Assembly (NCBI GenBank): GCA_000091205.1
Contig: AP006499.2
DNA: 64,000 nucleotides
Direction: 5' to 3' (one strand)
Source of the DNA: Cyanidioschyzon merolae
Lineage: Eukaryota
The first letter of the stretch is position 1; the number at the start of each line of letters is the position of its first letter. The notes beneath the pieces are model-generated. The model ran no database searches. It saw only the letters and a program-made list of their open reading frames with translations, and was not told the DNA's origin. This document shows, piece after piece, positions 295 to 49,849 of the stretch. Made by a program: the position numbers and the translations under genes.

Positions 295-2337
295 CTATGC
301 TCCGCTTCGCCAGATACGTCGCTTCCGCTTTCGATAGCGCGTCTCGATAAACATGAAAGCACCCAAGGCAGTGATGATGACGCCTCCGATAAACGTCCCG
401 ATCACGATACCGACAATTGCACCTGTTGGCAGACCGTTCCCGAGACTACCAGAAGCGCCGACGTAGTTCTGTATTGGTGAGGTGACTGCCAGAAGCGTTG
501 CGTTCGCATACAATACGCCCAGGCTTCGCAGCGTCTGCTGAAGCATCAGAGCGACGTCAGCTCGCTCCATGGTACTGGCGAGGTCGCGAGACTCCGGGGT
601 GTAAACCTGCAGAACAAGAAATACTGAACCATTCGCATTGCGGACGAGCGATTGGTTCACTTGCACCCCAGCCGCGTCCACAGCGTTCGAGAGCCAGCGC
701 GAAGCATTTGTTGGATACCAGAGAGAGATGTGCTTCCCGTGAATCCCGAGAAGCTCGACAAGCATGTCGCGCAACCGCTGTTGTTGTGACTCCACCAGCA
801 CCCGTGGAATACCGCGCACCATGTAAGCCGCCTGCACATGGACGCCAGCGCGGCTACTCGGAACAGGAGTCACAATCGGACAAGTTCGCAATCCACTCGG
901 TTCCATGTGCCGATAGAAGTTGAAAACATATTCTGGTTCGAGTTCGGGGTGGAAGATACGGATCTGGTCCCGGAGGATCAGATCCGGCCGCAGAACACCC
1001 TGCTCGAAGATGGGGTTCGGGTCCGTATATTTTGTGGCATCAAACAGATTATCACAGAGAACTGCCGTCCAGTTCCGGGCGTAGGTGTAGTTCTGAAGCA
1101 CTTGAGCCACCGTCTTCTCGGTCGGCGTTGTGATCGAAAACCCGGTCCAGAACTGCGAGCTATTCGCGCCCAACAAGGTGAGGTTGAGGCCGGTGTCCGG
1201 CTTTCCGAGCGCGATTCCGTTGTCAAAACAGTAGGCAAGTTCCTGAGGCAGTTCCTCGTCGTTTTCTCCAAACACATAATAAGCGTTGGCGTCTCGAATG
1301 AAGGTTGCTTGGTACTTGGAGCCGAAATAGAAAGTCGAGTCGTAAGCGTAGCCGTACAAAACCGAAGGACGACGCTCTGCGGTCTGCGCTAGACCTTTGG
1401 CTTCCTCGTAGCTCCGGACAATATCACGAAACTGTTCAGACGTCTGGGTTGGAATACCAAACAGCAAGCCGAAGAGCTTGACGTATTCCGCTCGACCGAG
1501 TGGTGTCGATTCGTAGTCCTCACCAAGGAAGAGAACGGATACATTTTGTTCTGCAGGACGCAGGGTTCCGTTCCGGAGAACTTGTCTCCAGTCAGCGTCC
1601 ACCTGCGACACAATGAAAACGTCAATGTTCAGGCTGGTGTTCTCCAATAGGCGCTGTAGATGCGTGAGGTTTCCAAAGTCACCGGCACAGGCGTATGTGC
1701 CCGGCTCGATGAACTCCTGTGTCGTGGGTGTACAGCCAACAGCGTACGGGGCGCCGCACAGCGACCCTGGAGTGCTGGCATTACAAGCCCAACCATGGAT
1801 GTATCCTACCTCTGCAAGCGCCTTAAATAAGGTGCCAGTTAAATAGTCTGGTTCCTGGAAAGCGCGAATCGCGTACGGTCGAACAATCCCGTAACCAACA
1901 TATCCCGCCTGGAGGGTATCGGTGAGCGCCAGTCCGCGGGGAGGAACCGCATGGACTTGCGTGACCATCCCGGTGCTGTTAAAGTCGGGGTGCTCGGTGG
2001 TATTGAAGCCACAGCGAACGAAGGCGTGCACTTCCCAGAGTCCGTCTGCGTCGACTTGCATGGCGAGCTGGGCCCACGAGCCATCGCTTGCAGCAGAGTA
2101 GTTACGTAGCGTCTGTGCATGGTCAAACGAGAACGATGTGGGAAATACAGCATAACTTGAGGTGTCACAACGATCGAAAACATGTGCACGCGCAGGTGGA
2201 ACTGTCAGCGTTGCGACGAGGAGGAGCACGAGTACGAACAGCACGCTCCTGTGGGTTTGCAGCGCGGGGCGCAGCTTCGGCTGTCGTTTGCCTCTGCAGT
2301 GCGCTTGTGGTCTCTTTTGCTGGGGATTGAGGATCAT
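295..2337 (-). CDS. Hypothetical secreted or type I membrane glycoprotein. It has a basic N-terminus followed by a hydrophobic signal/anchor, more than 20 N-x-S/T sequons, many Cys, and a single C-terminal TM helix with a short basic tail.
   Basis: 680-aa uninterrupted ORF starting at ATG. Hydrophobic segment SVLFVLVLLLVATLTV near the N-terminus. C-terminal TM GAIVGIVIGTFIGGVIITALGAFMFI followed by RYRKRKRR. No recognisable family. Confidence 0.5.
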   Translation of the reverse strand: MILNPQQKRPQAHCRGKRQPKLRPALQTHRSVLFVLVLLLVATLTVPPARAHVFDRCDTSSYAVFPTSFSFDHAQTLRNYSAASDGSWAQLAMQVDADGLWEVHAFVRCGFNTTEHPDFNSTGMVTQVHAVPPRGLALTDTLQAGYVGYGIVRPYAIRAFQEPDYLTGTLFKALAEVGYIHGWACNASTPGSLCGAPYAVGCTPTTQEFIEPGTYACAGDFGNLTHLQRLLENTSLNIDVFIVSQVDADWRQVLRNGTLRPAEQNVSVLFLGEDYESTPLGRAEYVKLFGLLFGIPTQTSEQFRDIVRSYEEAKGLAQTAERRPSVLYGYAYDSTFYFGSKYQATFIRDANAYYVFGENDEELPQELAYCFDNGIALGKPDTGLNLTLLGANSSQFWTGFSITTPTEKTVAQVLQNYTYARNWTAVLCDNLFDATKYTDPNPIFEQGVLRPDLILRDQIRIFHPELEPEYVFNFYRHMEPSGLRTCPIVTPVPSSRAGVHVQAAYMVRGIPRVLVESQQQRLRDMLVELLGIHGKHISLWYPTNASRWLSNAVDAAGVQVNQSLVRNANGSVFLVLQVYTPESRDLASTMERADVALMLQQTLRSLGVLYANATLLAVTSPIQNYVGASGSLGNGLPTGAIVGIVIGTFIGGVIITALGAFMFIETRYRKRKRRIWRSGA

Positions 2338-2885
2338 AAAGTTCGTGTGATCACGCGATCCTGACGTTCGCAGTGTCTCAAGTCCAGATCCTTGTTATAA
2401 AGAGCCTCTGGGATCCGAGTGATTCGCAAAGTTCGTCGCAGTGTCCTTCGCGGCGCTGCCGAGTAAAAGGCTGTCAGTGGTGCAACTCCAGTTTCACGTA
2501 CGCTTTCAGTAATTGCTTTCGGTCTGCTGTGGTTCCTAACGAGCACAGCAAATACCCTTCGCGCGGTTGCACGACAAAACTTAGTCGTTGAGCCAACACC
2601 AGCCTCACTCCAGTTTTTACGCGCTTCCTTTACAGTAGCCCTGCTTCCTGAAAATGAATACCCTCAGTACTGCTGTAATACATACGGTAGGCGAAAGGCA
2701 GTATCAGTTTCACGGTACTTTTCTTCTCTTGTCTAAGTTGCTCGGCAGCTTCTTCAGGTTCGCAACGTGGCTGCGGCTAACGCAGCGCCACCGCGACGCT
2801 CACGGCGCTTACCGACTGCAGCGCTCCTTGTCGCTGGAAGTCTCAACGAAAACGCTTCCTCTTCATTGCGTACAAACTGGTAACG

Positions 2886-3479
2886 ATGCGTGCTTGGAAA
2901 CTCGAAATACCACCTGGAGCAGATATAAGACAACCACATGCAAAACCTGGTGGAGACGAGGTTTCTCTGGTTGAATTAAACGCATTAGGTGTGTTGTACC
3001 AGTACTTCGCACCGAGTGACTACGATAAGAGCGGGACTGAGACTCACGCTCGGTGGCTTCAGTTCCGAAGCGATCACGGTTTCAAGTACGCTGATGTGTT
3101 GGAGGTGTCTCCTGAACAGTTACCTGACTTTGAGTCGAAACTTCAGATGTTTTTCGAGGAACACATCCACGCTGATCCAGAGGTTCGCTACGTTACTGCA
3201 GGTAGCGGTTATTTCGACGTACGCGATGAGAGCGACTCCTGGATACGAATCGCGGTAGAGCCAGGGGATATGCTGGTATTACCGGCAGGAATTTATCACC
3301 GCTTCACAGTGGACAGTAGCAACTACATTCGGGCTGTGCGTCTATTCGCTGACGAGCCGCAATGGGTACCGATCAACCGAACGTCTGCTGAGCGTCATCC
3401 AGCACGCTTGGCATATGAGCAGCTATATCCGGAGCGCAGTTTCAGTACGGAACCAGAGCAACAAGCGCTGCGTGTTTGA
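2886..3479 (+). CDS. ADI1: Acireductone dioxygenase (ARD/MTCBP-1) of the methionine salvage pathway; cupin fold.
   Basis: 197 aa starting at ATG. Colinear with ARD along its length: RQPH near the N-terminus, then YFDVRD..WIRI...GDMLVLPAGIYHRFT.D..NYI.A.RLF. Confidence 0.85.
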   Translation: MRAWKLEIPPGADIRQPHAKPGGDEVSLVELNALGVLYQYFAPSDYDKSGTETHARWLQFRSDHGFKYADVLEVSPEQLPDFESKLQMFFEEHIHADPEVRYVTAGSGYFDVRDESDSWIRIAVEPGDMLVLPAGIYHRFTVDSSNYIRAVRLFADEPQWVPINRTSAERHPARLAYEQLYPERSFSTEPEQQALRV

Positions 3480-13758: not shown

Positions 13759-14415
13759 TTACGGCAACTGCAGTGCCCGAAGTCGTGCACTCAGATCGGC
13801 TTGCTCCTGTTGCAATCGTTTCCTCTCCTGGGCCTGAGCGAGGTCACGTTGTAAAAGTGGTAAAGTAGGGGCCGTTCCCAGCGCATGACTTAGCTCGAGG
13901 TTGTTCTCCTCTGCCGTTTGTCGAATAAGAAGAGCGACCTCATCCTCCTCGGGTGTCTGACTCGCAACCCCGGCGCTTACACGATCAAGTCCACTATTTA
14001 TGAGAACGTCGCGAACCTGGACGTCGTCCAAGCGATTCTCCAGGAGCTGAAGCGAACTCTCCAAGCGCTCCACGTCAAGCACGCGAATAGCGCTATCCAT
14101 GTCGGAGGCGAGAAGGCCCATTTCAGAGCCAATCTGGCCCAAGTCGCGCGCTGCTTTGAGACGTCCCACGACTGCGTCTAGACGAGCCGCCAGTCGCAGA
14201 TAGGTCGTGCGCTCTCTCGCTTTGCGAACAGCGCTCTCTGCAGAGACCACGCTCATCTCCGCGTTTCCCGACTTGAGCGCTGCCTTGAGCTGCTCCACGT
14301 ACCGCTCTCTCTCGCGTTGGCAACGGTTTGCTTGACGTCGCAAGTGTTTTTCCAAGAGAAGCAGCTTGAAAATATGCTCTTGGTATCTTTTTGAGGACGA
14401 CTGGGCGAGTCCCAT
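13759..14415 (-). CDS. CHMP1: ESCRT-III subunit CHMP1/Did2 (Snf7 family).
   Basis: 218 aa. Colinear with CHMP1: EKHL..Q...C.RE, MSVVSAESAVRKARE..YLRLAARLDAV, and a C-terminal MIM-like LSARLRALQ. Confidence 0.8.
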   Translation of the reverse strand: MGLAQSSSKRYQEHIFKLLLLEKHLRRQANRCQRERERYVEQLKAALKSGNAEMSVVSAESAVRKARERTTYLRLAARLDAVVGRLKAARDLGQIGSEMGLLASDMDSAIRVLDVERLESSLQLLENRLDDVQVRDVLINSGLDRVSAGVASQTPEEDEVALLIRQTAEENNLELSHALGTAPTLPLLQRDLAQAQERKRLQQEQADLSARLRALQLP

Positions 14416-15232
14416 GTTTTAGGAAACAACCAAGAAAAGTTGCAGGAGAAACAAATGAGCGCACACGTGTGCTGTCTCCGAACACCGCTCCGGTACCAGC
14501 CCCATCGTTTGCGAACGGCCGCCTCTGGACAGCAGCGGCAACGGACAGCAGCGGCTAGATGGAGCGCTAAGAATCGGCCTTAACTGAGCGCGTTGATTTT
14601 TTCGATGACAAAACGTTTCACATGGGCCATGGATCTCATATCGCGGGACGGATCATGGTAATCAAAAAACGTGTATCATACTGCCACACGCTACCTCCGA
14701 GTCCCATTACTTATACTTCCCTCGGATATACTGATGGTTTCGTATGTTCTATCGATCGCCGATTACCTGCCGTGAGCACCCGCCGTAGCGCGTATACCAC
14801 CGATACGGATGCTGCACGGAGACAGAACGGCGTTGCGATACCACTGAGGGCGTCGGATCGATGTGTTTTTATAGGACATGGAATCGGAATCCCTTGCCAT
14901 TCTGGGAGCTTGCCGCAGCGGGGAGCGATATACCAGAAGACCACCGCGACCAGGGCGACGCTAAGACGCAGCATACCCACTCCTTGTTCCAGAAGAAACT
15001 GCGTTGTGGACGAGTTGCTCGGGTTTCGCTAAAGCAACAGCCAATGGGGCGATCATGCAACACAGGCCCGATAGACTCGTCCGGCTCGCGGGACCTTCCG
15101 CCCCGGGGGTAAACTATCGGCAATAAAGAAAGCCTTCCCCATTTTAACTGTTATCGCACAGGGGGAAGCAATCGTAATTTCGTTGCCAGTTAACGATTCG
15201 TTTCTGTTCCTTGTTCTATGCGGTGCGGTTGA

Positions 15233-17116
15233 GCAGCGCACCTGGAGATCTGGCGGTCACGAGATCGCGAAAAATATCGCACCTACCGCTTCAACCTTAG
15301 TCGATACGAGGGTGACCAGGATATTTACACCTACGGGGCCGTGAAGTACCTCACGAATCTGAAGAACCATTTGACGATGAACCTTGAATGTTTCATGATA
15401 CGCGCCGTGTTTGCGCTTTACGCGGGTATCTCTTGCAAGGGGATATGGGCGATTATCAATGGCATCACGAACGGTCGCAGGTATGAAGATGAGGTCGCAT
15501 TCGTGGACATGAGGGTATCAAACGGCAGCACGAATGAAGCTTCTGTGATCCGTGCGGTTATACAAGAGCACCGTGCGGTACTGGGGTTGGCGAATCCAAC
15601 AGACAAGATATCAGCGTTGAAAAAAAGATAAGGAAAGATACTATCGCCTCGTCCTGCGCTATTTTGTGTTTCTGGACCGAGAACTCGAACGCAAGGCACA
15701 GGTGGAGCTAAGTGAGGAAAAAAATGAAGAGTGGGAGAGACGGAAGGCTGCGCTTCTGGGGAAGCGCTTCAACGTGGTTCCAATGTGCAACATCAAGTCA
15801 CATTTTATGACTATCGGCTCCGGTGTCCTCTACGGCATCATGAGGGAGATCAGTCCCGAGTTTGATGTTAGCAGGGAGGAGTTCTCCGGTGAAGTCCGGG
15901 AGACGTACTGGAAAAATATCTTCAATTTCAAACGTCTCAAAATGAGTAAACAAAAGGTATTCACTGGAATGATCGAAACCGATGGGTAGCCATATGTGTA
16001 CACTATCGGCGATTGAAGGCAGATCGTCCAGTTCCGCCCTCAGCTGCGCCCGTGACGAAGGATGCAGAAAACAAAGAGGCGGATTCTGCGACGCAGGAGG
16101 TCGAGGATTACGACCTTGTCGTTGACGCGGGGAAGGATGATGATGAGAAGAATGCGGATCCTGTGATGCAGAAAGTGCAGGATAACGACTTTGTCGTTGG
16201 CGCGGACCCTGGGAATACGAATATCATGAACATTGCAGTACCCAGGCGTGGGGAAGATGGTACTGACGGTAATTTACGTCAGAAAGACATGCGTTTTTTC
16301 AGGTTCTCGAGAGCGAGATACTATCGGGAATCGGGAATCATGAATGCGAGGAAACAATTCGAGATATGGAATGCAGGAGTGAAGGATCACCTGGAAGCGA
16401 TGAGCGAGGTGACTAGCCGAGGAGAGGACTTTAAAGCTTTTCGGAAATTCATAGAAGTTCGCATGGCGCACTGGGATGCGCTATGAGAGGAGTATACCAA
16501 GCCCCGGTGGGCTCGTCTGCGTATGAATCTGTACTCTGGGAGGCAGCGGGCATTTGCCAACTTTTCCAATGAGTTGAGTGCCCTGAAGGACGACGAGGGT
16601 CAGAGGCTCGTTGTAGCATACGGAGCAGGGCACTGGAAGACCCAAAAAGGGACTACGGCAGCTCCAACAACAAGAACGTACAAAGAGTGTGCGCAGCGTT
16701 TGGTTACAGTATCGATCGTTGAGTTCCGAACGTCCTATACACACCATGAGCTAGGGTGTATACTTCAGAAGGTGGAGATGGAAAAGTGCCAGAGGAGCCC
16801 TGAGGATATGAAAAAGTACGGACCGCTGACGGAGGAGCAAATGGAAAGGAGAGCGAAATTTCGTGGACTACTTGCATTAGTGAGTACAACCACCAACGGC
16901 ACGAAACGTACGGATTTTGTGAACCGAGACTTTAACGCCGCTGTCAATAAAAGGAGATGTGCGGTGCTGGAAAGTAGACCTTCAGAGCTGACAAGAGAGA
17001 ACTTTGTTGGACAATCTCGAAAATATGAACTATACGAGAAAAAATTGGAAGCAGTAGTGGGTGGCCGGTCCAAAAAGACCGGGAGGCGACTGCACCTCGG
17101 GAAGCGTCTTGTCTAG
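15233..17116 (+). pseudogene. TnpB/Fanzor-like RNA-guided RuvC nuclease gene, copy A. It is disrupted by two frame changes and one in-frame TGA, so is treated as a decayed gene.
   Basis: Conceptual reading across the frame 2 -> frame 0 -> frame 2 segments gives about 628 aa. Motifs are Ruv[20 protein letters not shown], RuvC-II region QRLVVAYGAGHWK, a degenerate zinc-finger region VEFRTSYTHHELGC and RuvC-III FVNRDFNAAVNKRR. The first frame change lies in an A7 run (15618-15624). There is an in-frame TGA at 16484-16486. Confidence 0.6.
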
Positions 17117-17190
17117 GGCGGGCTTCTCGCCACTACTGTACACCGGGCGCGACTCGTGCGGAACGCTCACTCACTCTCTCTGGAACCTGT
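15255..17190 (+). mobile_element. Fanzor/TnpB-like element, copy A (about 1.9 kb). It ends 75 bp upstream of the TFB5 start codon.
   Basis: An imperfect inverted 11-12-mer bounds it: cacgagatcgcg at 15258, and cgcgactcgtg at 17153-17163 on the other strand. The ends are homologous to the ends of copy D. Confidence 0.5.
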
Positions 17191-17454
17191 ATGGTTCATG
17201 CGACCAAAGGGTACCTGGTGCGCTGTGATGTACCGATGAAACAACTGCTGCTTCACTTGGATCGAGAAGAACACTTCATCATCTGTGATCTCGATGAAAA
17301 ACACCTTTTCGTGAAGGAGGACGCGTTGTCGCTGATCCAGCAGAGCGTGGAAGCGCTCTACGATGAAGTATACTATGGGCCCCAAGAGCCCGGACCCCGA
17401 CGGCAGCGGGCAGGCGCTTCTACTGGAACCGGAACGCAAGAGTCGCTAGACTAG
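17191..17454 (+). CDS. GTF2H5: General transcription factor IIH subunit 5 (p8/TTDA/Tfb5).
   Basis: MVHATKGYLVRCDVPMKQLLLHLDREEHFIICDLDEKHLFVK aligns with human p8 [25 protein letters not shown]...FIIQDIDDTHVFV. Confidence 0.75.
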   Translation: MVHATKGYLVRCDVPMKQLLLHLDREEHFIICDLDEKHLFVKEDALSLIQQSVEALYDEVYYGPQEPGPRRQRAGASTGTGTQESLD

Positions 17455-17788: not shown

Positions 17789-20700
17789 CTAGGACTGCTT
17801 CGAATGGAGCGCAACTGGGTTCATTTTCAGCTGAGCGCCCAACAACTCAGATGTTAGCGCGGTACGCTCTGCCTCATACGGAGACGGGACGGAGACGCGG
17901 AGCAGGCGTAACATGCCGACGACAGCCCAGAGACGACTCCGTAGATTGCGCTTCGAAGACTCGCTCCAGAGAGAAGATTGCCCATAGATTGCCTGTTGAA
18001 TTCGAGCGCTTTCTCGAGTGCATGCGCACAGGTCCATTCGCTGTAAAGCCACTGCTGCATGGCAGAAAACGCGGAATCGCCTCCGAGACTGGGCACAGCG
18101 ATCCTTCAGCTGGACGGAGGTCGCCGCGCTGGTTCCCATCCTACTACTTCCACTGCTGCCACCGTGGGCATCATCTTGCGCATTGGATATCGTGGGTAGT
18201 GCTGCGGTTATCTGTGCAAAACCCGAATCCGCTGGTGCCGCAGCGGACTGCGGTTCGTTGCCCATTGGAGCATCGCCCAGCCGATAGTTGGTGCCGGCTT
18301 GGTAGCGTCTCAAGTTCCGTTGCATGAGCTGGTGGCAAAGTGCTTGCCACAGGCGACCCGGTTGATGAACCCATGAGACTGGGCACAAGCGAGTCAGGAA
18401 ACCTATAGGCAGCTCGAGGCCGGCAATCAGGAGACCTGCACCCCACTGAGCGCCCGACAGATTCACGATGCCGACTGACTGGCCAACCGCAGTGCGACCG
18501 AGCACCTCCACAAGGACAACCTGTATGACAGCGGAACCGAAAACAATGCATAGGAAGAGACGTGCGCGACCGATACCTTCGAAAACATGCCGTTCGGCAA
18601 TGCGTCGACTGTTCAGCTCTGATACAAGTTGCAGGAATACAAATGTGTTAAAGATAAATCCATTTCGCTGTAGCGTCTGACCACCGCAAGGATCCGAAGA
18701 CGTAGAAACCGCGTAACAAGGAATATGGAACAATGGAACCGTCACGAATAACAACGTTATCATCACCGCAAGTTGATACAGCGCGATGCCGAGCATGTTC
18801 CGCACCATGGCGGGCGTTATGAGCGGCGCGTTCCGGCCTTGTGGTGGCTGCTGCATGAGTGCGCTACGTGGTGCCTCTGTGGCCAGGGCGAGCGCTCCAA
18901 ATGAATCCATCACTACATTGACCCATAGAAGGGGCACTGTGGACAGCGGTAGCGTCATGCCGGCACACGCGCTGAACAGGTCGAGCGTCACCGCAACAAT
19001 ATTCACAGTCAGCTGAAACTGTAAAAATTTGCGAATGTTCTCCAACACATTCCGACCCCAGAGTACCGCAGCAACAATAGACCCGAGTCGATCGTCCAAC
19101 AGCACCACATCAGCAGCCTCTTTCGCGAGCTCTGTACCAGACACACCCATTCCGAAGCCTATATCGGCTTCACGCAGGGCAGGCGCGTCGTTGCTTCCGT
19201 CCCCGGTTACCGCCACGACTTGTTCGAGCGCTCGAAAAAGTTGCACCAATTCGAGCTTATCTGCCGGGGTTGCACGTGCGAGCACGCGCATTCGCATCGA
19301 AACATTTTGCTGAACGGCACGAGGTAGTTGGCGAAATGCGGCCGCATCCCATACCAGCTGCACTGGGGAGGATCCCGGCTCTAGCAGCTCTGCCGCCTGT
19401 GCAATCTGCGTCGCCGTTTGCACACTATCTCCAGTGACCATACGAACGAAGACACCGGCCTGTTGCAGTGCCCGCACCGACGCGGCGGTATCGGGTCGTA
19501 GCGGATCGCTCATTCCGAAAATGCCCAGCAGAATCAATTCCGTTTCAGGCGGTTCGTTCACACCCGGGAGGTTCCCTGTCTCTGCCGGTTGCTGTTGGTC
19601 CCAGAACGCAACCAGGAGCATTCTGAGTCCCTGCTCCGCAAAAGCTTCCATCGCACTGCGGTACGCGTTGCGCTTGGACCAACTCATTCGCGTCAATGCT
19701 CCGGTACGGCAATTCATTTCGAGGACACAACGCTCGAGCAGCTGATCGGGGGCTCCTTTCACGTGCAAGCGTTCCAAACGACCGTCTGGTGCGAGCTGCT
19801 CAATGCTGCACATTTGCTTGCGAGTGCTGTTGAAGAGGTAGACACGACGGAGCGAGGAAGCGGCGCGCAGCTCCCGATACGAAATTCCCATGCGATGCAG
19901 CAGCTCCAAGAGCGCACATTCCGTGCGGTTGCCAATGTACTCCACAGTGCCATTCTGTTGATCACGCAAGTCAGCTTGGCTATTGATGGCGATACAACTA
20001 GCTAACAAGCGAAGATAGATGGGTGAAATGGTGCGCCGCTGCAGCAGATCGCTCAGCGAGCCCGCCGGTAGCGCAGCCTCCGTTACTCGGAGCTGATTCC
20101 AAGTCATTGTACCAGTTTTGTCAATGTTGAGCTGCGTTGCAGAGCCCATCGTTTCGCAGGCTTCCAGACGACGCACCAGTATGTTCTCTTTCATCATTTG
20201 ACGCATGGCAAAGGCCAGACTCAGCACGACGGCAAGCGGGAGTCCCTCGGGGATGGCGACAACCGCGATCGCTATCGCGGCAGTGATACTCTCCGTGAGT
20301 TTCATAATAGGCCATGAGCCGCTCCGAATGGAATCTACCAACCAGCGAATAAAGAGCACGCCAAACACGAGGAACGCTAGACCCAGTCCAATGTAACCGA
20401 TGGAGCGGGCGAGACGGTTCAGTCGAACCTGGAGTGGCGTCTGTGGTGGCGTTGGGCGCAGGCTTGTCAACAGCTGGCCCCAGACTGAGTTCATGCCCAC
20501 TGCAACAGTGAGCATGGTACCGAATCCACTCGTAACGATGGTTCCCGATAGCACGAAAATGTCCGCTTCTTCATGTACCGATGGTGGAGCAGGCGATACG
20601 TCGTCGCCATCTGCATGCAGCTGTATAGTAGCAGTCGTCTTAGCAGCATTACTTGCCGCGGCGGCGGCGGCAGCAGCAGCAGGCCTATCGAATGCACCTG

Positions 20701-21376
20701 TCTTGGACACTGGGACACTTTCCCCGGTCAAGGTGGATTCATCACAGGCGAAATCAGTTCCCTGTAAAAGGATCCCATCCGCGGGTACCTTGTCGCCAGC
20801 GGAAAGCTTGATGAGGTCGCCAACGAGAACCCCAGGGGCATCCACAAGACGCACTTCGCCTCCGCGGAGGATTCTTACGGGGAACGCGTCCTTCACCGCA
20901 TTAAGGGACCGGAAGCGGCGCTCTCGCTGCAATGCAATCGTCGCATCAAGGCAGACAACCAGTACAACAACCACGAGGATAGCACACCCATCCAGATATC
21001 CGTAGCGGGTACGTTCTGACGGCAGCGCCAGGCCCAGCACCAAACTGATCAGCGCGGCACCAGTCAGCAACACGAGGGTGACGTCGTTCCAGGCCGCGAA
21101 AACGAGTCGCAGAAAACTCGGTGGAGGTGCGTACTTTAGAAGATTCGCCCCAAAGTACTGCTGGCGAGCCACAACGCTCTCTGGATCGATACCTCGCTGC
21201 AGGTCGACTCGGAGCCGACGGGCGAGCTGCGTAACACCACCAAGCGCCTCCAAGTCGCGCAACGTACGGTGCTTGGTGAGCGGCACAAGCTCGCTCACCG
21301 TAATACGGAAGAATGCTTCGTCTTCTCTCTCGTTGCCGCGTTCAAGGTCAGCGTTGGTGACGTCAAACTGCTCCAT
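17789..21376 (-). CDS. P-type Ca2+-transporting ATPase, type IIB (PMCA/ACA-like).
   Basis: DKTGTMT phosphorylation motif, PEGLPLAV in TM4, GDGSNDAPAL hinge and KGAPD. The track ORF starts at TTG 21400; the first ATG is at 21376 (MEQFDVTNADL...). A poly-Ala insert and an approximately 200-aa C-terminal tail follow TM10. Confidence 0.85.
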   Translation of the reverse strand: MEQFDVTNADLERGNEREDEAFFRITVSELVPLTKHRTLRDLEALGGVTQLARRLRVDLQRGIDPESVVARQQYFGANLLKYAPPPSFLRLVFAAWNDVTLVLLTGAALISLVLGLALPSERTRYGYLDGCAILVVVVLVVCLDATIALQRERRFRSLNAVKDAFPVRILRGGEVRLVDAPGVLVGDLIKLSAGDKVPADGILLQGTDFACDESTLTGESVPVSKTGAFDRPAAAAAAAAASNAAKTTATIQLHADGDDVSPAPPSVHEEADIFVLSGTIVTSGFGTMLTVAVGMNSVWGQLLTSLRPTPPQTPLQVRLNRLARSIGYIGLGLAFLVFGVLFIRWLVDSIRSGSWPIMKLTESITAAIAIAVVAIPEGLPLAVVLSLAFAMRQMMKENILVRRLEACETMGSATQLNIDKTGTMTWNQLRVTEAALPAGSLSDLLQRRTISPIYLRLLASCIAINSQADLRDQQNGTVEYIGNRTECALLELLHRMGISYRELRAASSLRRVYLFNSTRKQMCSIEQLAPDGRLERLHVKGAPDQLLERCVLEMNCRTGALTRMSWSKRNAYRSAMEAFAEQGLRMLLVAFWDQQQPAETGNLPGVNEPPETELILLGIFGMSDPLRPDTAASVRALQQAGVFVRMVTGDSVQTATQIAQAAELLEPGSSPVQLVWDAAAFRQLPRAVQQNVSMRMRVLARATPADKLELVQLFRALEQVVAVTGDGSNDAPALREADIGFGMGVSGTELAKEAADVVLLDDRLGSIVAAVLWGRNVLENIRKFLQFQLTVNIVAVTLDLFSACAGMTLPLSTVPLLWVNVVMDSFGALALATEAPRSALMQQPPQGRNAPLITPAMVRNMLGIALYQLAVMITLLFVTVPLFHIPCYAVSTSSDPCGGQTLQRNGFIFNTFVFLQLVSELNSRRIAERHVFEGIGRARLFLCIVFGSAVIQVVLVEVLGRTAVGQSVGIVNLSGAQWGAGLLIAGLELPIGFLTRLCPVSWVHQPGRLWQALCHQLMQRNLRRYQAGTNYRLGDAPMGNEPQSAAAPADSGFAQITAALPTISNAQDDAHGGSSGSSRMGTSAATSVQLKDRCAQSRRRFRVFCHAAVALQRMDLCACTRESARIQQAIYGQSSLWSESSKRNLRSRLWAVVGMLRLLRVSVPSPYEAERTALTSELLGAQLKMNPVALHSKQS

Positions 21377-21749
21377 TCTCTTCTCGAGGTCTTTGCACAA
21401 GCGGCTTCGTTGCTGTCCACGGAACGGTGCGTTGTTCGCTCCAAAAACGTCAGCTGGGTGCGCCGTGCAGCCGCAGACCCTTATGGACAGCGCCGTTGGA
21501 CTGAACGTCTCAGTTTTTCAGCTGAAACTGACGTGGAAGGCGGCCTTTCTTATCCGTTATGTGATCGGGTCTTTGAAAAGCACGGCACTCTATGACGCCT
21601 TCCATGTCTGCCACCAGAGCGACTACATCATGACATTATTATGGTGCTGGCTTCGAAACTGTGCTTCCGGGGTTGAACTTTCGATTATGGCACGTGCATG
21701 GAAATCGTTGGATGCATCAGTCGCAAACGCGAGAGATGTATAGACTTCC

Positions 21750-22433
21750 TGGTAATTTACGGCGACGCGTTACACGTGTATCGTATAAAAACGGAACGCT
21801 GAACTGTTTGCTCTGTTCACGGGTTTCATGGGTTTCCGAGCTTCTTCGTAGATATGCGTCCACGACATGCCAAATGCGGGTATAAGGACGTTGGGATTTA
21901 TACGCAGTTTCACGATTCTCGGTCGACGAGTTCGGAGTGGATCCTTTGACGCTTTGCCTCTGGCATTCGTTACGTCAGCAGAGTCAAGGTGATTGGCGGC
22001 GGCATTGAAAAACGGTTCATAAAATAACCGATATCTTTACCCAGTGCATGCGCACAAGCTTCTACTCTCATTCTATCCATGTGTGTTGGATGCACAAATC
22101 ACAGATTCTTCAAGTCTTCGATCGTTCTGTTTCAAGGCAACTCGTGGGCGCAGCAACTCGAGCCGCTGGATTGTCGACGTAAAGTACCCGACGGAGTCAC
22201 TTGACGACTTGTTCACAGGTTCATGCTGAAAGTTCACTGCGCGTCTTACGTCAAATAGCAATCGATTCCGTTCGAAATACAAGTCCTCATCTTTTTCAAC
22301 AATCGACGAAATGACATTCGACACGAACAACGCATTCCCTCTCATGGGGTAAGCTCCAACTGGATCCTGCTTCTTTCGTTTGTAAGAAAAAGGGACTTGA
22401 ACTCGGACTTGAGTCATTGCAGCGATCGCTTTC
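21750..22433 (+). mobile_element. Fanzor/TnpB-like element, copy C. This is an internal-deletion derivative (about 0.7 kb) lying about 400 bp upstream of the Ca-ATPase start.
   Basis: Nucleotide homology to copy B over the 5-prime part (C 21790-22200 vs B 62100-62480). It shares the peptide AQIT.SS..RSFCF.ATRGRS...W with B. It shares the 3-prime tail ...gaactcggacttgagtcattgcagcgatcgctttcc with B and lacks the RuvC region. Confidence 0.5.
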
Positions 22434-29339: not shown

Positions 29340-31300
29340 CCCTCAGCAGTGCCTTGCGCTTGCCGAGCATCCAGGTCTTTCGCTCGTCGCCAGTGATTTT
29401 TTCGTGGCAAGGCTTCAACGTTTCAAGTCAACGCCTGAGCAGAGTACTTTGTGATTCCGTTGGATGTTCGCTGGACACAGAGCCCATAGATGCTCCTGAA
29501 GCACGGAGCGTTTGCGGATGTTGATGGCGGTGTTCAAGTCTCCGTGCAGAATATGCGTTCTCGCGTGGTGACTGCTAGACGCATACCATAACATGCTTCT
29601 AATTTTCGATTGTAACGCCATCTGCCGCTAGCTGAGCCTCCCAACAGCAAACTTGTGCATCCCGTGATGTTTCACACTTTGGTTTCCTTTCTACAACAGG
29701 AAGCACCTGTGCTCCCAACGCATGAATGCCGCCCAGAATGCATCCATGGGGATCGTACGGAATCGATTCCTGCACTCGTTGGGTGCTCTCGTCGATGAAG
29801 CGGCAGTGCAGCGCTCGTGCCCTACAACACGTCCAGCGCTACAGCCTATCGCCAAACAGCACGACTTGTGCGTCATTTCCTGTTCCGATTCTTCGGTAAC
29901 GTTTCCGCATGCCCGCTTGTTGCTGCTGCCGCCATGGTACCGATCCCTTTCGCGATCCTAGAGCGCTCACGTATACTCCTGACAGAGAACGTACGCGTGA
30001 GCTGTTTGGATGTAGATGCACGTCCTGATTGGAGTGTACAGGGTATCTCGACCGTGTCGATAAAGCGTTCAGGGAGTCTAGAGCGATCCTGGCGCTTCAT
30101 GACACGCGCTGGAATGGCTCCTGGTGGACATCATACCGAACCGCCAATGATACCGAGCCTGGAAAAATTGAACAGATCAGTCTGCTTTCTTTCTGAAGTG
30201 TTCGCCCTCGTCCTCTATGTTCAGAGGCAAGGCGACGGCCATGATGCCCTTCAAAACGGGATCCACGCGCACCATGAAGAGTCTCTCTTCATCTACCTTG
30301 ATCAATTCCAAATGAGTATCTTTGCTAGACTCAGATCTTGGTTTCACAACATACATGCAGTGTGAAATGCTGTCAATCTCCATAGACCAGTGAGCGTCGT
30401 TCCATCTATTTCCTGTAAACGAGAAGCCTTGAACGAGCTCCGCCAATACAGTTTGCAGCGTAGCTCGATCATTTCATACTGTCTCGCAGAGAGCAGCCTT
30501 TTCTTCGCTTTCTATCCTACTCGGCCAGGTGGCGTGAGCGCAATAACCTAACACAATATCCATTTCTTTCTCGGGATTCAGACACAATAAGTGGACGATG
30601 CGGCCTGACCTCGCCTTTTCAATGTCTGCATGTATCTATTCTTGCTTAAGAACATTTTCGCCACCGTCGTGAGCACACAATCGGACCGAAACGCGCATTT
30701 CCTCTCCCGTCCGCGCACGCCTTCAAACCCTGCAAAGCAGATCAGAGCTGGTGAAGATCGAGAGCAAATTTTCAAAGAATGGAATTACGAATGCGAATGA
30801 CTCGTCTATGAATCCGTGAGCGCCTAAAAGGTGCTCCGCAACTGGGAAGCCGCCTTCGATTGGATTGAACTAGGGAGAAGAGGTTGAAATGAAGGGCGAC
30901 GCATCGCCAACCTCAGCCGCATACTCCTTGATCGCATTTGATTGATCGGAAGCGATGTTGTCTACGAGCAGAACAGCAGAATGTGCGAAGCAGAAGGTGT
31001 CATGAAAAATGCGTCGACAAAGGATGCGCTATCGAACAATGCTGCCCGTTGATATGCGAAGCAGAAGGTGTCATGAAAGATGCGTCGACAAAGGATGCGC
31101 CATCGAACAATGCTGCCCGTTGATATACGAAGCAGAAGGTGTCATGAAAAATGCGTCGACAAAGGATGCGCTATCGAACTATCCTGCCCGTTGATATACG
31201 AAGCAGAAGGTGTCATGAAAGATGCGTCGACAAAGGATGCGCTATCGAACTATCCTGCCCGTTGATCTACGAGGGAGAAGCATGTTGTGCGCTGCTGCAA
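29340..31300 (-). mobile_element. Fanzor/TnpB-like element, copy D (about 2 kb, minus strand). It is decayed, and its N-terminal region contains the 71-bp tandem array.
   Basis: Minus-strand ORF fragments in different frames each align to copy A. These are RuvC-I VRVDPVLKGIMAVALP (30177..30446), FIDTVEI...LQSGR (29873..30100), the RuvC-II/ZF region LAIGCSAGRVVGHERCTAASSTRAPNEC (29691..29876), and SSSHHARTHILHGDLNTAINIRKRSVLQEH for ZF remnant plus RuvC-III (29415..29621). The 3-prime tail is homologous to copy A. Confidence 0.55.
30985..31268. repeat. Tandem array of 4 copies of a 71-bp unit (gcgaagcagaaggtgtcatgaaaaatgcgtcgacaaaggatgcgctatcgaacaatgctgcccgttgatat), with degenerate flanks.
   Basis: Unit starts at 30985, 31056, 31127 and 31198. 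The track ORFs 30938.., 31009.., 31080.. and 31151.. are the same repeat read in frame. Confidence 0.9.
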
Positions 31301-31674: not shown

Positions 31675-32042
31675 ATGGAAGCGTTTCAACCTCTTCGTTC
31701 CATAGAACATATTCCACCTGTGGAACGGAAAGGACCGGAGGAACGCTTCTGGGAAACCTTTGACGAAAAAGCCCGGATCCGCTTAACCGGCGCGGTGCAA
31801 GGAGTGCACTTCTCCCCGCTGGGTTCCAACCAGGTTGCCGTCACGGCCGAGTCGCGAGTAACCATTCTCAAATCGTCTACCGGGGATTTGATCAAGAGCT
31901 TCCCGCGTACGGACACCGTTGCCTATGCTGGCCGCTACCGTACCGACGGTAAGCTTCTCGTTGCCGGGACAGAGAGCGGGCTTGTTCACCTGTACAACGC
32001 ACATAGTCGATCAATACTGCGTACGTTTTCCGGCCATAAGAG
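31675..32042 (+). CDS. UTP15: UTP15 (U3 snoRNP / SSU processome WD40 protein), exon 1.
   Basis: WD40 N-terminus colinear with UTP15 (...YAGRYRTDGKLLVAGTESGLVHLYN...LRTFSGHK). The exon ends ...aag ag|GTAAGT. Confidence 0.8.
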
Positions 32043-32350
32043 GTAAGTTTCTCTCTGGATCTGATTGATCACCTAATGCCGCAGGCCTTGAGGCGACCAC
32101 AGTGATGTGCAACAGGATGAGTGCATCGTTCGCGGTAGACTGCCGAGCTCGGTGCGAATGCGCTCGCACACCATCCATGAGCGAAAGCAAGAGCCCCGTC
32201 TTTTGTCCCTATCTGATCTGCCATCACTCGTTGGTGCACTCTACCTGCGGCGACACGGAGGCGGTCTATAATGAGGAGCAGGCCGTCGTTTGCGTGTCAC
32301 ATGAACATCAACTAACCATCCTGTTGAATGACTTCACGATATCATTGTAG
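32043..32350 (+). other. Spliceosomal intron of UTP15 (308 nt, GT-AG).
   Basis: Donor GTAAGT at 32043, CTAAC branch point at 32311-32315, acceptor ...cattgtAG at 32349-32350. Splicing joins the split codon ag|t (Ser) and keeps the frame, giving ...FSGHKSSVRSVYF.... Confidence 0.75.
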
Positions 32351-33614
32351 TTCTGTTCGGAGCGTATACTTTACCATAGACAAGTTGCGAGTGGTGTCTG
32401 CGTCTGACGATATGACCGTACGCATCACGGATATTCCTAGTGAACAGTGCCTGCTCAGCTTACACCACGCAGACCGAGTTCGGGCCCAGACGCCGTGCCC
32501 AGCATCGCCGCATCTGTGGCTCACCGGTTGCTACGACGGCGCGGTGCGACTCTTTGACCTCAGGTTGCCCAGTCAGAAGCCCGTTCGCATGGTCTGGCAT
32601 GCACAGCATGGGCAAGTTGACGACGTCTGTTTCCTCGATAGCGAGAGCAGCACCTTCGTCGCTTCGGGCGGCGGCTCGTCAGTGCGCTGCTGGGAGCTGC
32701 TCCATTCTAGCAGCGATGTGGAGGCTGGTTCACAACGCGCGCTGCTCGCTGAGCTTGAACCGCATCGGAAGGCAGTGATGTCGTTAGCACTGGATGCAAC
32801 CCGACGCCGATTGCTGTCCGTGTCACTTGATGGGGCTTTGAAAGTCCACGATCTGAGCGTCCTTTCAACCTTGCATACGAGATCCATTGGAGCCGGTTGC
32901 CTCTGCATGGATCTCTCTGCCGATGGGCGGAGTCTCGCGACCGGCCATGTGGACGGTCAGCTTCGCATCGAGCGACGTGGCGTGAGCAAACCTAGTGGCA
33001 TTGAAAACGAGACCAATGTGGACGAACGATCCGGTGAACCGGACTGGGCGAGTCTCGCGCGAGGTCACCTTGACCGCGGTGATGCCCTGCGGCCGTACCG
33101 TCCGGGAACACGTCGCTACTTTCTGCGTGGCATGTACGCGAAGCCCGACAGCGACATCGACGACGTGATTCTTGGTGATGGCGACTCCACGAGCGGCACA
33201 AGTCGACGACGACGACGACAGCATGATCAGAAACCCTACGATCACCATCTGAGACGCTTTGCGTACGACAAAGCGCTGAGCGCTGTCTTAGAAACGAATC
33301 AGAGTGGTTTGATCGTGAGCATGCTGGTAGAGCTCGACCGTCGCAAAGGCCTCCAAAATGCGCTCTCTAGCCTGAATGAGCAGCAAATGATAACCTTAAT
33401 CGAGTTTATTGCGAAGCATATCGCGGACAGCCGCTATATCCAGGTGCTTGTACCGGTCTCGCATCTAATTGTTGACATGCATCATACGAAAGATTCTCTC
33501 TCAGGCTCCTTACTTGCCGCGCTGCAACGACTCGCAGCTCGCGTTCAACAACAGGTTCATCATCTCGGCGATATGGAGAAGATGGCTGCAGCGATCGAGC
33601 TCTTCCTCTCGTGA
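32351..33614 (+). CDS. UTP15: UTP15, exon 2 (remaining WD repeats plus UTP15_C domain).
   Basis: C-terminal region (RRRRRQHD...FAYDKALSAVLE...ELDRRKGLQNALSSLNEQQMITLIEFIAKHI...) matches the UTP15 C-terminal domain. Confidence 0.8.
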
Positions 33615-48683: not shown

Positions 48684-49849
48684 AAGCGTACGGCCTTGGC
48701 GGAGGCAAAGCTATCGCGCCCGAATCGGTAGGTAGCGCACGGCGGGCGCGACGAGAATCGCCAGTGTGCAGCAACGTCGCGTCAACGTGGCTGCATTGTG
48801 GCAAGAATGCGGAAAGTATGCGGCTGGTAAGACGATGACACAAACAGCATAGCAGTGAGCACCAGTGGCGTGCTCGGCATCTGCAGAGCGTCTGGATGGA
48901 TGAGGTCTCCGGTCCAGGCCGGCAGGTCATGGTGCGGCTTGTGTGTGGTGCTAGTCCGATTCAGGGATCCAGGCAACGAAAAGAAAATCGGCAACATTGG
49001 ACGCCACCTTAGATGCGGCTCGGGTCCCGATCATGCACGATGAAGGCGACTACCCTGGGGCAAGCTGGACGTCAGCGTTTGGTGAACCGCTCTATTGCCG
49101 AATTGTCTGTTTCCTGCATGGGAAACGCAAGCCGTGCTGCAGCGAGCGAATCTGGGACAGGGTTCGCAACTCATAAGGAGAACGGTGCACCTCAGGTGAG
49201 GCATTTTCGGCTATAGTCTGCAGCTTTTAGACGTACACTGTTGCGGCATCGTCGTTACAACAACGATTACGCGAGGGCAAGCGGCAGCATGACCAGCAGG
49301 TACTCTGGTCACGCGCGTCTTCAAAAAATCTCCGGAATTCGTTAGCAAATCTGTTCTGTTCTCATCGACAACACCTTTACACTGAGCTGAGAACCCCACT
49401 TGCGCCATGAATATCGGCATACTGGAGCGTACCAATCATTTCTCAACCCAACTCCGAGCTCCATCAATGAACATGCATGCCTCCCCCGAAGATACTCGTC
49501 ATTCCGTACATTCCATCGTGCACCGCGCCTGTCGTGAGCGCTCCCAACTGCCTCCGAAAATCCGATACAAACACAGCACGGAGATAGAACAGCTGCGCGA
49601 TATCACCGATAACGTTGGATCGTGGCGTTTTTCATCCAACATGGTGTCCGGTCTTTCCTTCACTTTCTATACAAACCTTCTATGAAGCGACCAGTGACGA
49701 TGAACGCCCCGGCGCATCGCTCAGCGTGGCCCCTGCGGCTCGCGCATCGATGGTCTTGCCACCGGCTCGTAGCTCGCGCTGTTTGCAGTGAACGTGTTCG
49801 CTGGTACCGCCTGTGAAACCCGATCCTTGTGGTGCGTCTGTGGTTCAAT

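Follow-up and report, generated by a model that had tools for sequence, protein, structure and literature searches.

We analysed a window of 64,000 nucleotides (the whole stretch of DNA considered here) from contig AP006499.2 of the Cyanidioschyzon merolae assembly GCA_000091205.1, in which a first-pass annotation, made from the sequence alone, had singled out a TnpB/Fanzor-like nuclease element at 15233-17190, hereafter copy A. Our results make it very likely that copy A is a fixed, inactivated insertion of CMe-1A, a published non-autonomous Fanzor1-carrying family of C. merolae. The TnpB/Fanzor identity proposed at the outset is borne out by a profile built from 59 relatives, by the predicted fold of an intact relative and by the published family itself. 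The identification is not new, as the family was reported for this alga in 2013 (Bao and Jurka 2013, Mobile DNA 4:12; PMC3627910); mildly new are a second, Mariner-linked lineage, the size of a clade that lacks the zinc finger, and a candidate RNA element at the 3' end of the family.

Copy A and the published CMe-1A family

Bao and Jurka reported CMe-1A from C. merolae as a Fanzor1 family of ~150 copies, each ~80% identical to a ~3-kb consensus, and listed it in their supplementary table as a 3169-bp element encoding a single-exon Fanzor1 protein of 734 amino acids (aa); it is the only Fanzor1 family that their table gives for this species (PMC3627910). CMe-1A has no terminal inverted repeats (TIRs), its target-site duplications (TSDs) could not be determined, and its consensus opens with 635 bp that share 95% identity with TE-N2_CMe, a distinct repeat of ~70 copies (PMC3627910).

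We took the consensus DNA and protein of CMe-1A from the supplements of that paper and aligned them to the window. The consensus matches copy A with E = 0 by both blastn and tblastn. The blastn alignment falls into two blocks, window 14603-15264 against consensus 1-688 (75% identity, E = 2e-136) and window 15268-17145 against consensus 1334-3139 (83% identity, E = 0), the latter extendable to consensus position 3145 (window 17149). Collinearity with the 3169-bp consensus begins at consensus base 1, which the 5' terminus of copy A matches exactly (CGATGACAAAACG), and continues to within ~25 bp of the consensus end; the identities of the two blocks are in line with the ~80% reported for the family. 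This alignment corrects the bounds of the element to 14603 to ~17175 on the + strand, its start lying ~630 bp upstream of position 15233 (Table 1).

The differences from the published consensus amount to a 645-bp internal deletion, two frameshifts and one stop codon. The deleted segment held the ATG (consensus position 906), codons 1-143 with the basic N-terminus resembling a nuclear localisation signal (NLS), and the 5' untranslated region (UTR). What is left is a pseudogene of ~616 codons, 76-87% identical to CMe-1 in three frame pieces (tblastn), which three-frame translation of 15100-17300 places at 15269-15631, 15621-15989 and 15986-17116; the frameshifts lie at ~15625 and ~15987 and the in-frame TGA at 16484-16486. 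The family profile hidden Markov model (HMM) matches the largest frame piece with E = 5e-189, and translation together with a motif search recovered all motif blocks quoted in the first-pass annotation, on the + strand and in the order given there. Immediately ahead of the RuvC-I motif lies a tandem repeat, whose two units (16057-16130 and 16132-16205) are 75.7% identical in a self-blastn alignment. Downstream of the stop codon, copy A keeps the first stem and the ACTACTGTACAC box typical of the family (17117 to ~17145), and the terminal hairpin of better-preserved copies is degenerate here. This stretch, 17117-17175, may represent a remnant of an omega-RNA scaffold and of the right end of the element, the RNA role being conjectural.

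The intact N-terminus that copy A has lost can be seen in the CMe-1 consensus (GKKRKT...KKQKREARRQRLQERR) and in two intact relatives introduced below, P0110 and P0112 (MPPKGKRKK...). It is basic, disordered and NLS-like, and the AlphaFold model of P0112 has a predicted local distance difference test score (pLDDT) below 50 over residues 1-33.

Membership of the Fanzor1 family

The four open reading frame (ORF) pieces of copy A and its reconstructed protein match no Pfam family even at E <= 10, close homologues of copy A have no match in the local Pfam library, and the only precomputed Pfam label of these homologues is DUF8286. A word-indexed search returned 144 homologues, most of them JGI metagenome fragments with ~70% identity, and also two intact relatives of 676 and 699 aa (41% identity), P0110 and P0112. 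An exhaustive HMMER search of cluster representatives with the family alignment retrieved 2274 related proteins at E <= 1e-3, from which 59 diverse full-length members were taken to build a broad profile.

Searched against PDB sequences, the 59-sequence profile matches three solved Fanzor1 proteins, PpFz of Parasitella (E = 5.5e-23), SpuFz of Spizellomyces (E = 2.5e-16) and GtFz of Guillardia (E = 4.6e-11), with the TDG, DPG, DEFRT and RD-NAA blocks collinear between the profile and these proteins. The Pfam family Cas12f1-like_TNB is matched by 13 of the 59 relatives. Thus, the HMM comparison proposed in the first-pass annotation gives a null result with Pfam for copy A itself, but a clear match to solved Fanzor1 proteins for the broad family. 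The structural comparison proposed there was run on the intact relative P0112 rather than on copy A. Its AlphaFold model, based on the 59-member alignment, has a pLDDT of 87.5 and a predicted template modelling score (pTM) of 0.85, and Foldseek against the PDB returned SpuFz1 as the best match (E ~1e-18; template modelling (TM) scores 0.63/0.74), followed by PpFz and GtFz. The first seven matches are all Fanzor1 structures (TM 0.54-0.64 by query and 0.57-0.74 by target), Cas12 proteins and Fanzor2 rank far below them, and ISDra2 TnpB is not among the Foldseek matches listed. By profile and predicted fold, then, the CMe-1 protein family is assigned to Fanzor1.

SpuFz1 (Spizellomyces punctatus, PDB 8GKH) was shown by experiment in 2023 to be a eukaryotic, transposon-borne, omega-RNA-guided DNA endonuclease (Saito et al. 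2023, PMC10432273). Besides resembling the P0112 model in fold, it shares with the family the collinear series TDG, DPx, Gly at RuvC-II, DE[FY]xTS and RD. Unlike SpuFz1, the CMe-1 clade is known here from sequences and a model, is only ~15% identical to it and has no CCCC zinc finger.

These comparisons bear on the possibility that the motif blocks are a chance resemblance within a repeat unrelated to TnpB/Fanzor, which we consider scarcely credible. The missing Pfam matches of copy A and its close relatives, labelled DUF8286 at most, would fit such an explanation; it is contradicted by the profile matches to three solved Fanzor1 proteins, by the Foldseek match to SpuFz1, by catalytic positions that are invariant or nearly so over the 59 relatives (see below) and by the independent publication of the family as Fanzor1 (PMC3627910).

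Catalytic site and zinc-finger segment

Fanzor proteins have been described as having a rearranged catalytic site, in which the canonical RuvC-II residue is substituted and a conserved alternative Glu lies downstream (Jiang et al. 2023, PMC10530073). In the alignment of the 59 diverse full-length relatives, numbered according to P0112, D421 of RuvC-I and the alternative Glu, E592, are invariant, and D659 of RuvC-III is nearly so. In SpuFz1 and PpFz, the counterpart of the D421 site is the DP motif, and the invariant Glu stands in VDEFRT, 33 residues downstream of the canonical RuvC-II position. The site pattern of the clade is accordingly an Asp in GxDPG, a Gly at canonical RuvC-II, a Glu in VDEFRT and an Asp in RDxNAA. 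Copy A retains D, E and D individually despite its broken frame, whereas the alternative Glu is lost in two other copies in the window, D (MDAF) and E (IDIF), and the RuvC-III Asp in copy B (RGSNAA). The VVAYGAG block, which had been read as RuvC-II, does lie at the right position, but it has Gly where the catalytic Glu was expected, the Glu being found in IVEFRTS instead.

In copy A, YTHHELGC follows directly after IVEFRTS, in the segment where a CCCC zinc finger is common to SpuFz1 (in its NUC domain) and ISDra2 TnpB (PMC10432273). The published CMe-1 consensus itself reads THHELGC...EKC...LLAL, with THHELGC replacing the first CxxC exactly as in copy A. Among the diverse relatives, which keep the D-E-D triad, 57 of 59 have no CxxC between the Glu and the last Asp and share a VRGLLWC.ST motif in the zinc-finger segment instead. 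The missing cysteines are therefore a trait of the whole large, otherwise well-conserved clade and not decay. The replacement of Cys noted in the first-pass annotation is therefore real, but its interpretation as degeneration of these particular copies is not.

Among prokaryotic OMEGA systems, ISDra2 TnpB (IS200/IS605) belongs to the same superfamily and has a split RuvC domain and an omega-RNA derived from the right end (PMC10432273). It differs from CMe-1 in its canonical RuvC-II Glu, CCCC zinc finger, length of ~400 aa, lack of an NLS and association with the Y1 transposase TnpA. An assignment of CMe-1 to prokaryotic TnpB of the IS200/IS605 or IS607 type was rejected on account of the 734-aa length, the rearranged Glu, the absence of a zinc finger, the eukaryotic host and the Fanzor1 proteins being the best structural matches.

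Age and fixation of copy A

Copy A is ~17-25% diverged from the CMe-1A consensus. Through the neighbouring 218-aa protein, we found ten environmental contigs from different samples, all of which carry copy A between that gene and Tfb5. Broken ORF pieces are present at the locus in all ten, matching the 197- and 107-aa pieces of the window in nine, and in nine contigs identity to the window is 98.7-99.3% within copy A but 99.4-99.9% in the flanking genes. An empty (pre-insertion) site was sought in these environmental strains and none was found, 10/10 contigs being occupied; the termini and target duplication could therefore not be fixed from an empty site. Since the same dead copy stands at the same locus in ten environmental contigs, the insertion is old, and copy A is a fixed, neutrally drifting relic. 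Both the divergence and this shared insertion contradict the suggestion that the family has turned over recently here, and the description of the family as lineage-specific fails at the level of the protein family, given its 2274 related cluster representatives.

The same contigs bear on whether copy A might still be functional or domesticated, through frameshifting, splicing or use of its 197-aa C-terminal ORF. Such a role could be argued from the individually retained D, E and D residues and from the conservation of the 197- and 107-aa ORF pieces in the environmental contigs. Nevertheless, the internal deletion has taken away the 5' UTR/promoter region along with the ATG and codons 1-143, RuvC-I is parted from the recognition half by two frameshifts and a stop codon, and copy A diverges ~2-3 times faster than the flanking genes among strains, as neutral DNA would. 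The 197-aa piece, moreover, is without RuvC-I, and so no active site is possible in it. We consider continued function of copy A extremely unlikely, and the reading of copy A as an inactivated insertion stands.

Contig L089 (ena:ERZ27247228 k141_774381) deserves separate mention. Copy A is here only 94.4% identical to window 14603-17175, and synteny breaks exactly at its 3' end, Omp85-type genes taking the place of Tfb5 and the Ca-ATPase gene. This arrangement might reflect a rearrangement through recombination between CMe-1A copies, an origin in a more distantly related strain or a chimeric assembly at the repeat.

Other copies in the window and a Mariner-linked lineage

Copies were sought with family HMMs over a six-frame translation of the whole window, together with blastn, tblastn and a tblastx self-comparison. 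The first-pass annotation had counted four copies of one family, A to D. One of these, copy C (21750-22433), is unsupported: neither a pair of family HMMs searched without filters nor tblastn with four query sequences gave anything significant (best E = 0.6, against a 1.4-kb target), and it was rejected as a family member. A real fragment, copy E, had been missed.

Copy B had been placed at 62090-63177; its RGSNAAIN block is present (62865-62888, with the RuvC-III Asp replaced), but similarity to the family is confined to a much shorter segment (Table 1). This segment matches the consensus with 68% identity by blastn (E = 1e-30) and 54% by tblastn (E = 2e-17), and the family HMM at 62781-62978 (E = 1e-14). 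In the self-comparison, copies A and B share 49% identity over 71 residues (E = 2e-17), and the link between A and D is weaker.

Copy D, previously delimited as 29340-31300, matches the family HMM over 29454-30344 (E = 4e-39) and carries, on the - strand, the motifs VRVDPVLKG (30246-30272), GCSAGR (29829-29846) and GDLNTAIN (29520-29543), with PMDAFWAA, in which the alternative Glu is lost, at 29727-29750. The motifs reported for it are thus present, but its upstream part is not a Fanzor N-terminus. Instead, 31001-30735 (-) matches the C-terminal 94 residues (306-399) of a DDE_3 transposase from a metagenome contig, L002 (32% identity, E = 6e-9, tblastn). The translation of this relic carries an LLVDN...NPIE signature and alone gives a weak Pfam DDE_3 match below the cut-off (E = 0.047). 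The relic adjoins copy D in the same orientation, in the gene order of the intact elements described below. Because a transposase relic stands next to it, copy D is read as the probable stump of a Mariner-type Fanzor1 composite; a search for TIRs around copy D found nothing convincing. As a separate observation, a ~210-nt stretch at 30990-31300 (-), in the transposase relic upstream of D, is tandemly duplicated, with STGxIVR*RILCRRIFHDTFCF occurring twice.

By tblastn, copy D is 32% identical to P0110 (E = 1.6e-33) and 26% identical to the CMe-1 consensus (E = 1.4e-17). Copy E is linked to copy A by tblastx at 52690-53035, matches the family HMM with E = 7e-17 (main piece) and 3e-4, and is 40-53% identical to P0110 (tblastn), the alternative Glu again being lost (IDIFRT). 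In sequence, A and B are closest to CMe-1A, and D and E are closer to the second, P0110/P0112 lineage, which travels with a DDE_3 transposase.

The view that the window holds four copies of one lineage-specific Fanzor family that has recently turned over is therefore very unlikely. In its favour, A, B and D share collinear RuvC motifs, and A and B are 49-54% identical over ~75 residues at the protein level. On the other hand, C has no similarity and E went unrecognised, D and E are nearer to P0110/P0112, D has a DDE_3 relic of a kind that CMe-1A lacks, and the divergence of A, its presence in all ten environmental contigs and the number of related cluster representatives are at odds with recent, local turnover. 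The claim that all copies are decayed, by contrast, holds for A, B, D and E, which have frameshifts, stops, deletions or lost catalytic residues. Copies B, D and E are further dead fragments, and no copy in the window can be active.

Intact counterparts of the second lineage come from metagenomes. There, P0112 is encoded directly downstream of a DDE_3 (Tc1/mariner-type) transposase gene. Elements L001-L004, of ~3.6 kb and with a G+C content of 46-48%, come from several metagenomes and carry, in this order, an inverted repeat, the DDE_3 transposase gene, 18-bp tandem repeats, the gene for a 699-aa Fanzor1 protein and a second inverted repeat, the nuclease being labelled only DUF8286 in Pfam. 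In L001, L002 and L004, the transposase-Fanzor1 unit was found between imperfect inverted repeats of ~30 nt lying ~3.6 kb apart, bordered by TA in L002. L001-L004 look like live members of the lineage behind relics D and E. Their layout, like that of D, resembles Mariner/Tc1 Fanzor1 elements such as PUl-1 of Pythium ultimum (3620 bp, 24-bp TIRs, TA duplication; PMC3627910), with DDE_3 followed by Fanzor1 on the same strand. Unlike PUl-1, copy D keeps only the last ~90 transposase codons and the RuvC half, with no detectable TIRs.

Family anatomy, the 3' end and the mode of movement

To compare copies across the family, 79 CMe-1A-like loci were taken from metagenomes. Nearly all are decayed, the longest open frame being one of 778 codons (L012). 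The 75-bp in-frame repeat upstream of RuvC-I (consensus 2117-2196) is present in one to six copies among family members, two of them in copy A. It behaves as a coding minisatellite; its 25-aa translation (KHEEKKEA..TQ.VQDNDLVVD-like) was seen in L005-L084 between the TDG strand and RuvC-I, in a linker that is absent from P0110 and P0112.

Many copies are without the TE-N2 module, and at least three other conserved 5' modules are joined to the same core at consensus ~645. At least four alternative 5' modules thus occur on one core, and CMe-1A is a chimera among several that share an unchanging 3' part; chimeric subfamilies were not described in 2013. The alternative modules were seen in L008, L009, L012, L013, L020, L027, L029, L034, L041, L042, L058, L066, L077, L078 and L081, and a short palindrome (GCGCTCAGTGAGCGC) stands just downstream of the ~645 join in many such copies. 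The idea that the TE-N2 5' module is a transposase remnant was discarded, as a DDE_3 transposase used as tblastn query had no match in it.

The constant 3' part was examined in the consensus and 66 metagenome 3' ends. From stop codon to right end, it consists of a GC stem, the conserved ACTACTGTACAC box and a terminal hairpin, which has two variants, CGTCGTTCGA-CTT-TCGAACGGCG and AACGTTTTTC-TTTT-GAAAGRCGTT, both of which pair; the conserved end reaches at least 2-3 nt beyond that of the published consensus. The hand-drawn structure pairs in 88.5% of cells, compared with 31-61% for slid controls. In 32 of 40 copies, the sense strand is more stably folded than the antisense strand (Wilcoxon p = 3e-6), an asymmetry that fits G-U pairs and structure at the RNA level. 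We treat the ~60-nt structured 3' UTR as a candidate omega-RNA scaffold or right end. A DNA hairpin at the right end, of the IS200/IS605 kind, is not separable from an RNA hairpin, although its G-T pairs and the difference between the strands speak rather for RNA.

The same terminal features raise the question of whether CMe-1A moves as a rolling-circle, Helitron2-like non-autonomous element, which seems to us unlikely, though less so than the other alternatives considered above. Several observations are compatible with it, including the 3'-terminal hairpin in two sequence variants that both pair, the absence of TIRs and the indeterminate TSDs (PMC3627910), the T/C-rich 5' flanks of the 17 distinct junctions listed, at which the start can be read as (T)C, and the constant 3' ends combined with at least four different 5' modules on the same core at consensus ~645. 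There is also a parallel with CRe-1/2/3, Helitron2-borne Fanzor1 elements of Chlamydomonas reinhardtii (PMC3627910; CrFNuc in PMC10530073), which like CMe-1A are non-autonomous and of high copy number, with intact 3' ends bearing a hairpin, variable 5' parts and T-rich upstream sequence (they insert after TTTT), and for which a non-coding RNA has been mapped to the 3' UTR (CrFNuc, PMC10530073). Elements of the Helitron2 class begin with a 5' T behind a T-rich target, possess asymmetric terminal inverted repeats and a hairpin at each end, and depend on RepHel for mobilisation. However, asymmetric terminal inverted repeats and variable-length duplications are not demonstrated for CMe-1A, the proteins of CRe-1/2/3 are only distantly related to it, and no RepHel partner is known for CMe-1A (RepHel genes were not looked for). 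In CMe-1A, no clear asymmetric terminal inverted repeat or 5' hairpin is apparent beyond a partial match by eye ~8 nt inside the 5' tip, and no empty site turned up from which the target could be defined. The G-T pairs of the hairpin and its greater stability in the sense strand suit RNA at least as well as a DNA hairpin. Finally, Bao and Jurka defined Helitron2 in the same paper and nonetheless left CMe-1A unclassified (PMC3627910).

Evidence weighing against the assignment

Several results weigh against reading copy A as a relic of a Fanzor1-carrying mobile element with a 3' RNA, and they concern its sequence, its mobility and its 3' end. Copy A by itself has no Pfam match and its best match among PDB sequences, SpuFz1, reaches only E = 0.16 (phmmer); a narrow profile of six sequences matched no Fanzor among PDB sequences. 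Since copy A alone is too weak, the assignment rests on the broad profile, on the published family and on the modelled fold of P0112 (41% identity). The C4 zinc finger between RuvC-II and RuvC-III, which is part of the 2013 Fanzor motif and present in SpuFz1, is missing from the clade, the only departure from that motif among the defining features examined; Bao and Jurka placed CMe-1 in Fanzor1 although this zinc finger belongs to their motif definition (PMC3627910). As the clade has no CCCC zinc finger, its nuclease activity stays a prediction. CMe-1A further lacks TIRs, TSDs and a transposase that would explain its movement. As for the 3' end, Rfam gave no match over the whole window at the gathering threshold or over 14400-17400 at E <= 1, RNAalifold on 40 3' ends recovered stem 1 only, and covariation in the main 3'-end variant was not above that of shuffled controls, and we therefore claim no support from covariation.

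Genomic setting

The window is nuclear chromosomal DNA of the compact red-algal genome of C. merolae 10D, as the first-pass annotation had surmised in placing the elements in a eukaryotic nuclear region. Six of its ATG-initiated ORFs match C. merolae 10D proteins in the range BAM82222 to BAM82244 exactly and over their full length, its G+C content is ~55%, and long intron-free ORFs occur on both strands. The features discussed here are collected in Table 1.

The end of copy A lies only ~15 bp ahead of the Tfb5 start codon, and the 3' end of the dead element may consequently now sit in the Tfb5 promoter region. Elsewhere in the window, two WD40-type ORFs in different frames, at 31675-32046 and ~32350-33614 (+), are separated by ~300 nt. 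The gap begins with GTAAGT exactly where the first ORF ends and holds an ACTAAC box resembling a branch point, after which a TAG lies just within the second ORF; the pair looks like a WD-repeat gene, UTP15-like by eye only, interrupted by a spliceosomal intron, of which C. merolae has few.

Table 1. Coordinates of the features discussed, in window positions
Feature	Position	Strand	Remarks
5' module of copy A	14603-15264	+	Consensus 1-688; first 635 bp of consensus correspond to TE-N2_CMe
Internal-deletion junction	15265-15268	+	Consensus 689-1333 (645 bp) gone; blastn/tblastn coordinates jump from 688 to 1334
Fanzor1 pseudogene of copy A	15269-17116	+	Residues 144-734 of the 734-aa CMe-1 consensus; TAG stop 17114-17116
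Tandem 75-bp (25-codon) in-frame repeat	16057-16205	+	Two copies, just upstream of RuvC-I motif
RuvC-I motif GADPGNT	16199-16219	+	Contains catalytic Asp; motif search
Rearranged RuvC-II region	16610-16735	+	VVAYGAG 16610-16630 (Gly at canonical position); alternative Glu in IVEFRTS 16715-16735
RuvC-III motif RDFNAAVN	16925-16948	+	Contains catalytic Asp; motif search
3' untranslated end of copy A	17117-17175	+	Stem 1 (GGGCGGG CTT CTCGCC) and conserved ACTACTGTACAC box retained
218-aa gene	13759-14415	-	Neighbour of copy A
Tfb5 (TFIIH subunit 5) gene	17191-17454	+	Other neighbour of copy A
Ca-ATPase gene	17789-21400	-	Next after Tfb5; read as one ORF of ~1200 aa
Copy D	29418-30386	-	Relic of C-terminal (RuvC) Fanzor1 half, second lineage; many in-frame stops; N-terminal half deleted
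DDE_3 (Tc1/mariner-type) transposase C-terminal relic	30735-31001	-	Directly upstream of copy D; LLVDNIAS ... FNPIEGG
Diverged TE-N2_CMe-like 5' module fragment	49367-49668	+	Consensus 5-297; blastn 63.6% identity, E = 1.4e-21; no Fanzor part joined
Copy E	52660-53044	-	Fanzor1 C-terminus fragment with frameshift; absent from the first-pass annotation
Copy B	62762-63042	+	280-bp fragment; CMe-1A consensus 2809-3094, residues ~646-726

Implications

Judging from characterised Fanzor systems (PMC10432273, PMC10530073), an intact CMe-1 member would encode a nuclear-targeted protein of ~734 aa. This protein would bind an omega/fRNA drawn from the 3' end of the element, comprising the end of the ORF and the ~60-nt structured 3' UTR that abuts the right end. 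The 3' extension of the RNA into flanking DNA would act as a guide, and matching DNA would be cut beside a short adjacent motif. For prokaryotic TnpB, such cutting is believed to help the element persist and spread (PMC10705468). The copies in the window are neutral relics, and none of this proposed machinery works from them.

For the window itself, the import of these results is small, the elements being dead relics of a family that was named, counted and deposited for the same genome in 2013. The record is nevertheless corrected in several respects: copy A has new bounds, one copy is removed and another added, two lineages are distinguished, the insertion is recognised as old, and the loss of the zinc finger is moved to the level of the clade. 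The Mariner-linked Fanzor1 lineage in C. merolae is mildly new, being unlisted in the 2013 table (PMC3627910).

The wider interest lies in the mining of Fanzor proteins, for which our analysis offers a very large Fanzor1 clade devoid of the zinc finger and labelled only DUF8286 in Pfam, a compact candidate RNA element at the 3' end and hints on the mobilisation of CMe-1A. These elements could be joined in a single, improbable proposal, whereby the CMe-1 clade of 2274 cluster representatives, though without a zinc finger, keeps its D-E-D triad under selection, intact members in thermoacidophilic Cyanidioschyzon are active RNA-guided nucleases, the two-hairpin 3' UTR serves as their scaffold, and a Helitron2-like rolling-circle carrier, without a DDE transposase, moves them. 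If this were true, the clade would provide a Fanzor adapted to heat and acid, devoid of a zinc finger and paired with an unusually compact RNA.

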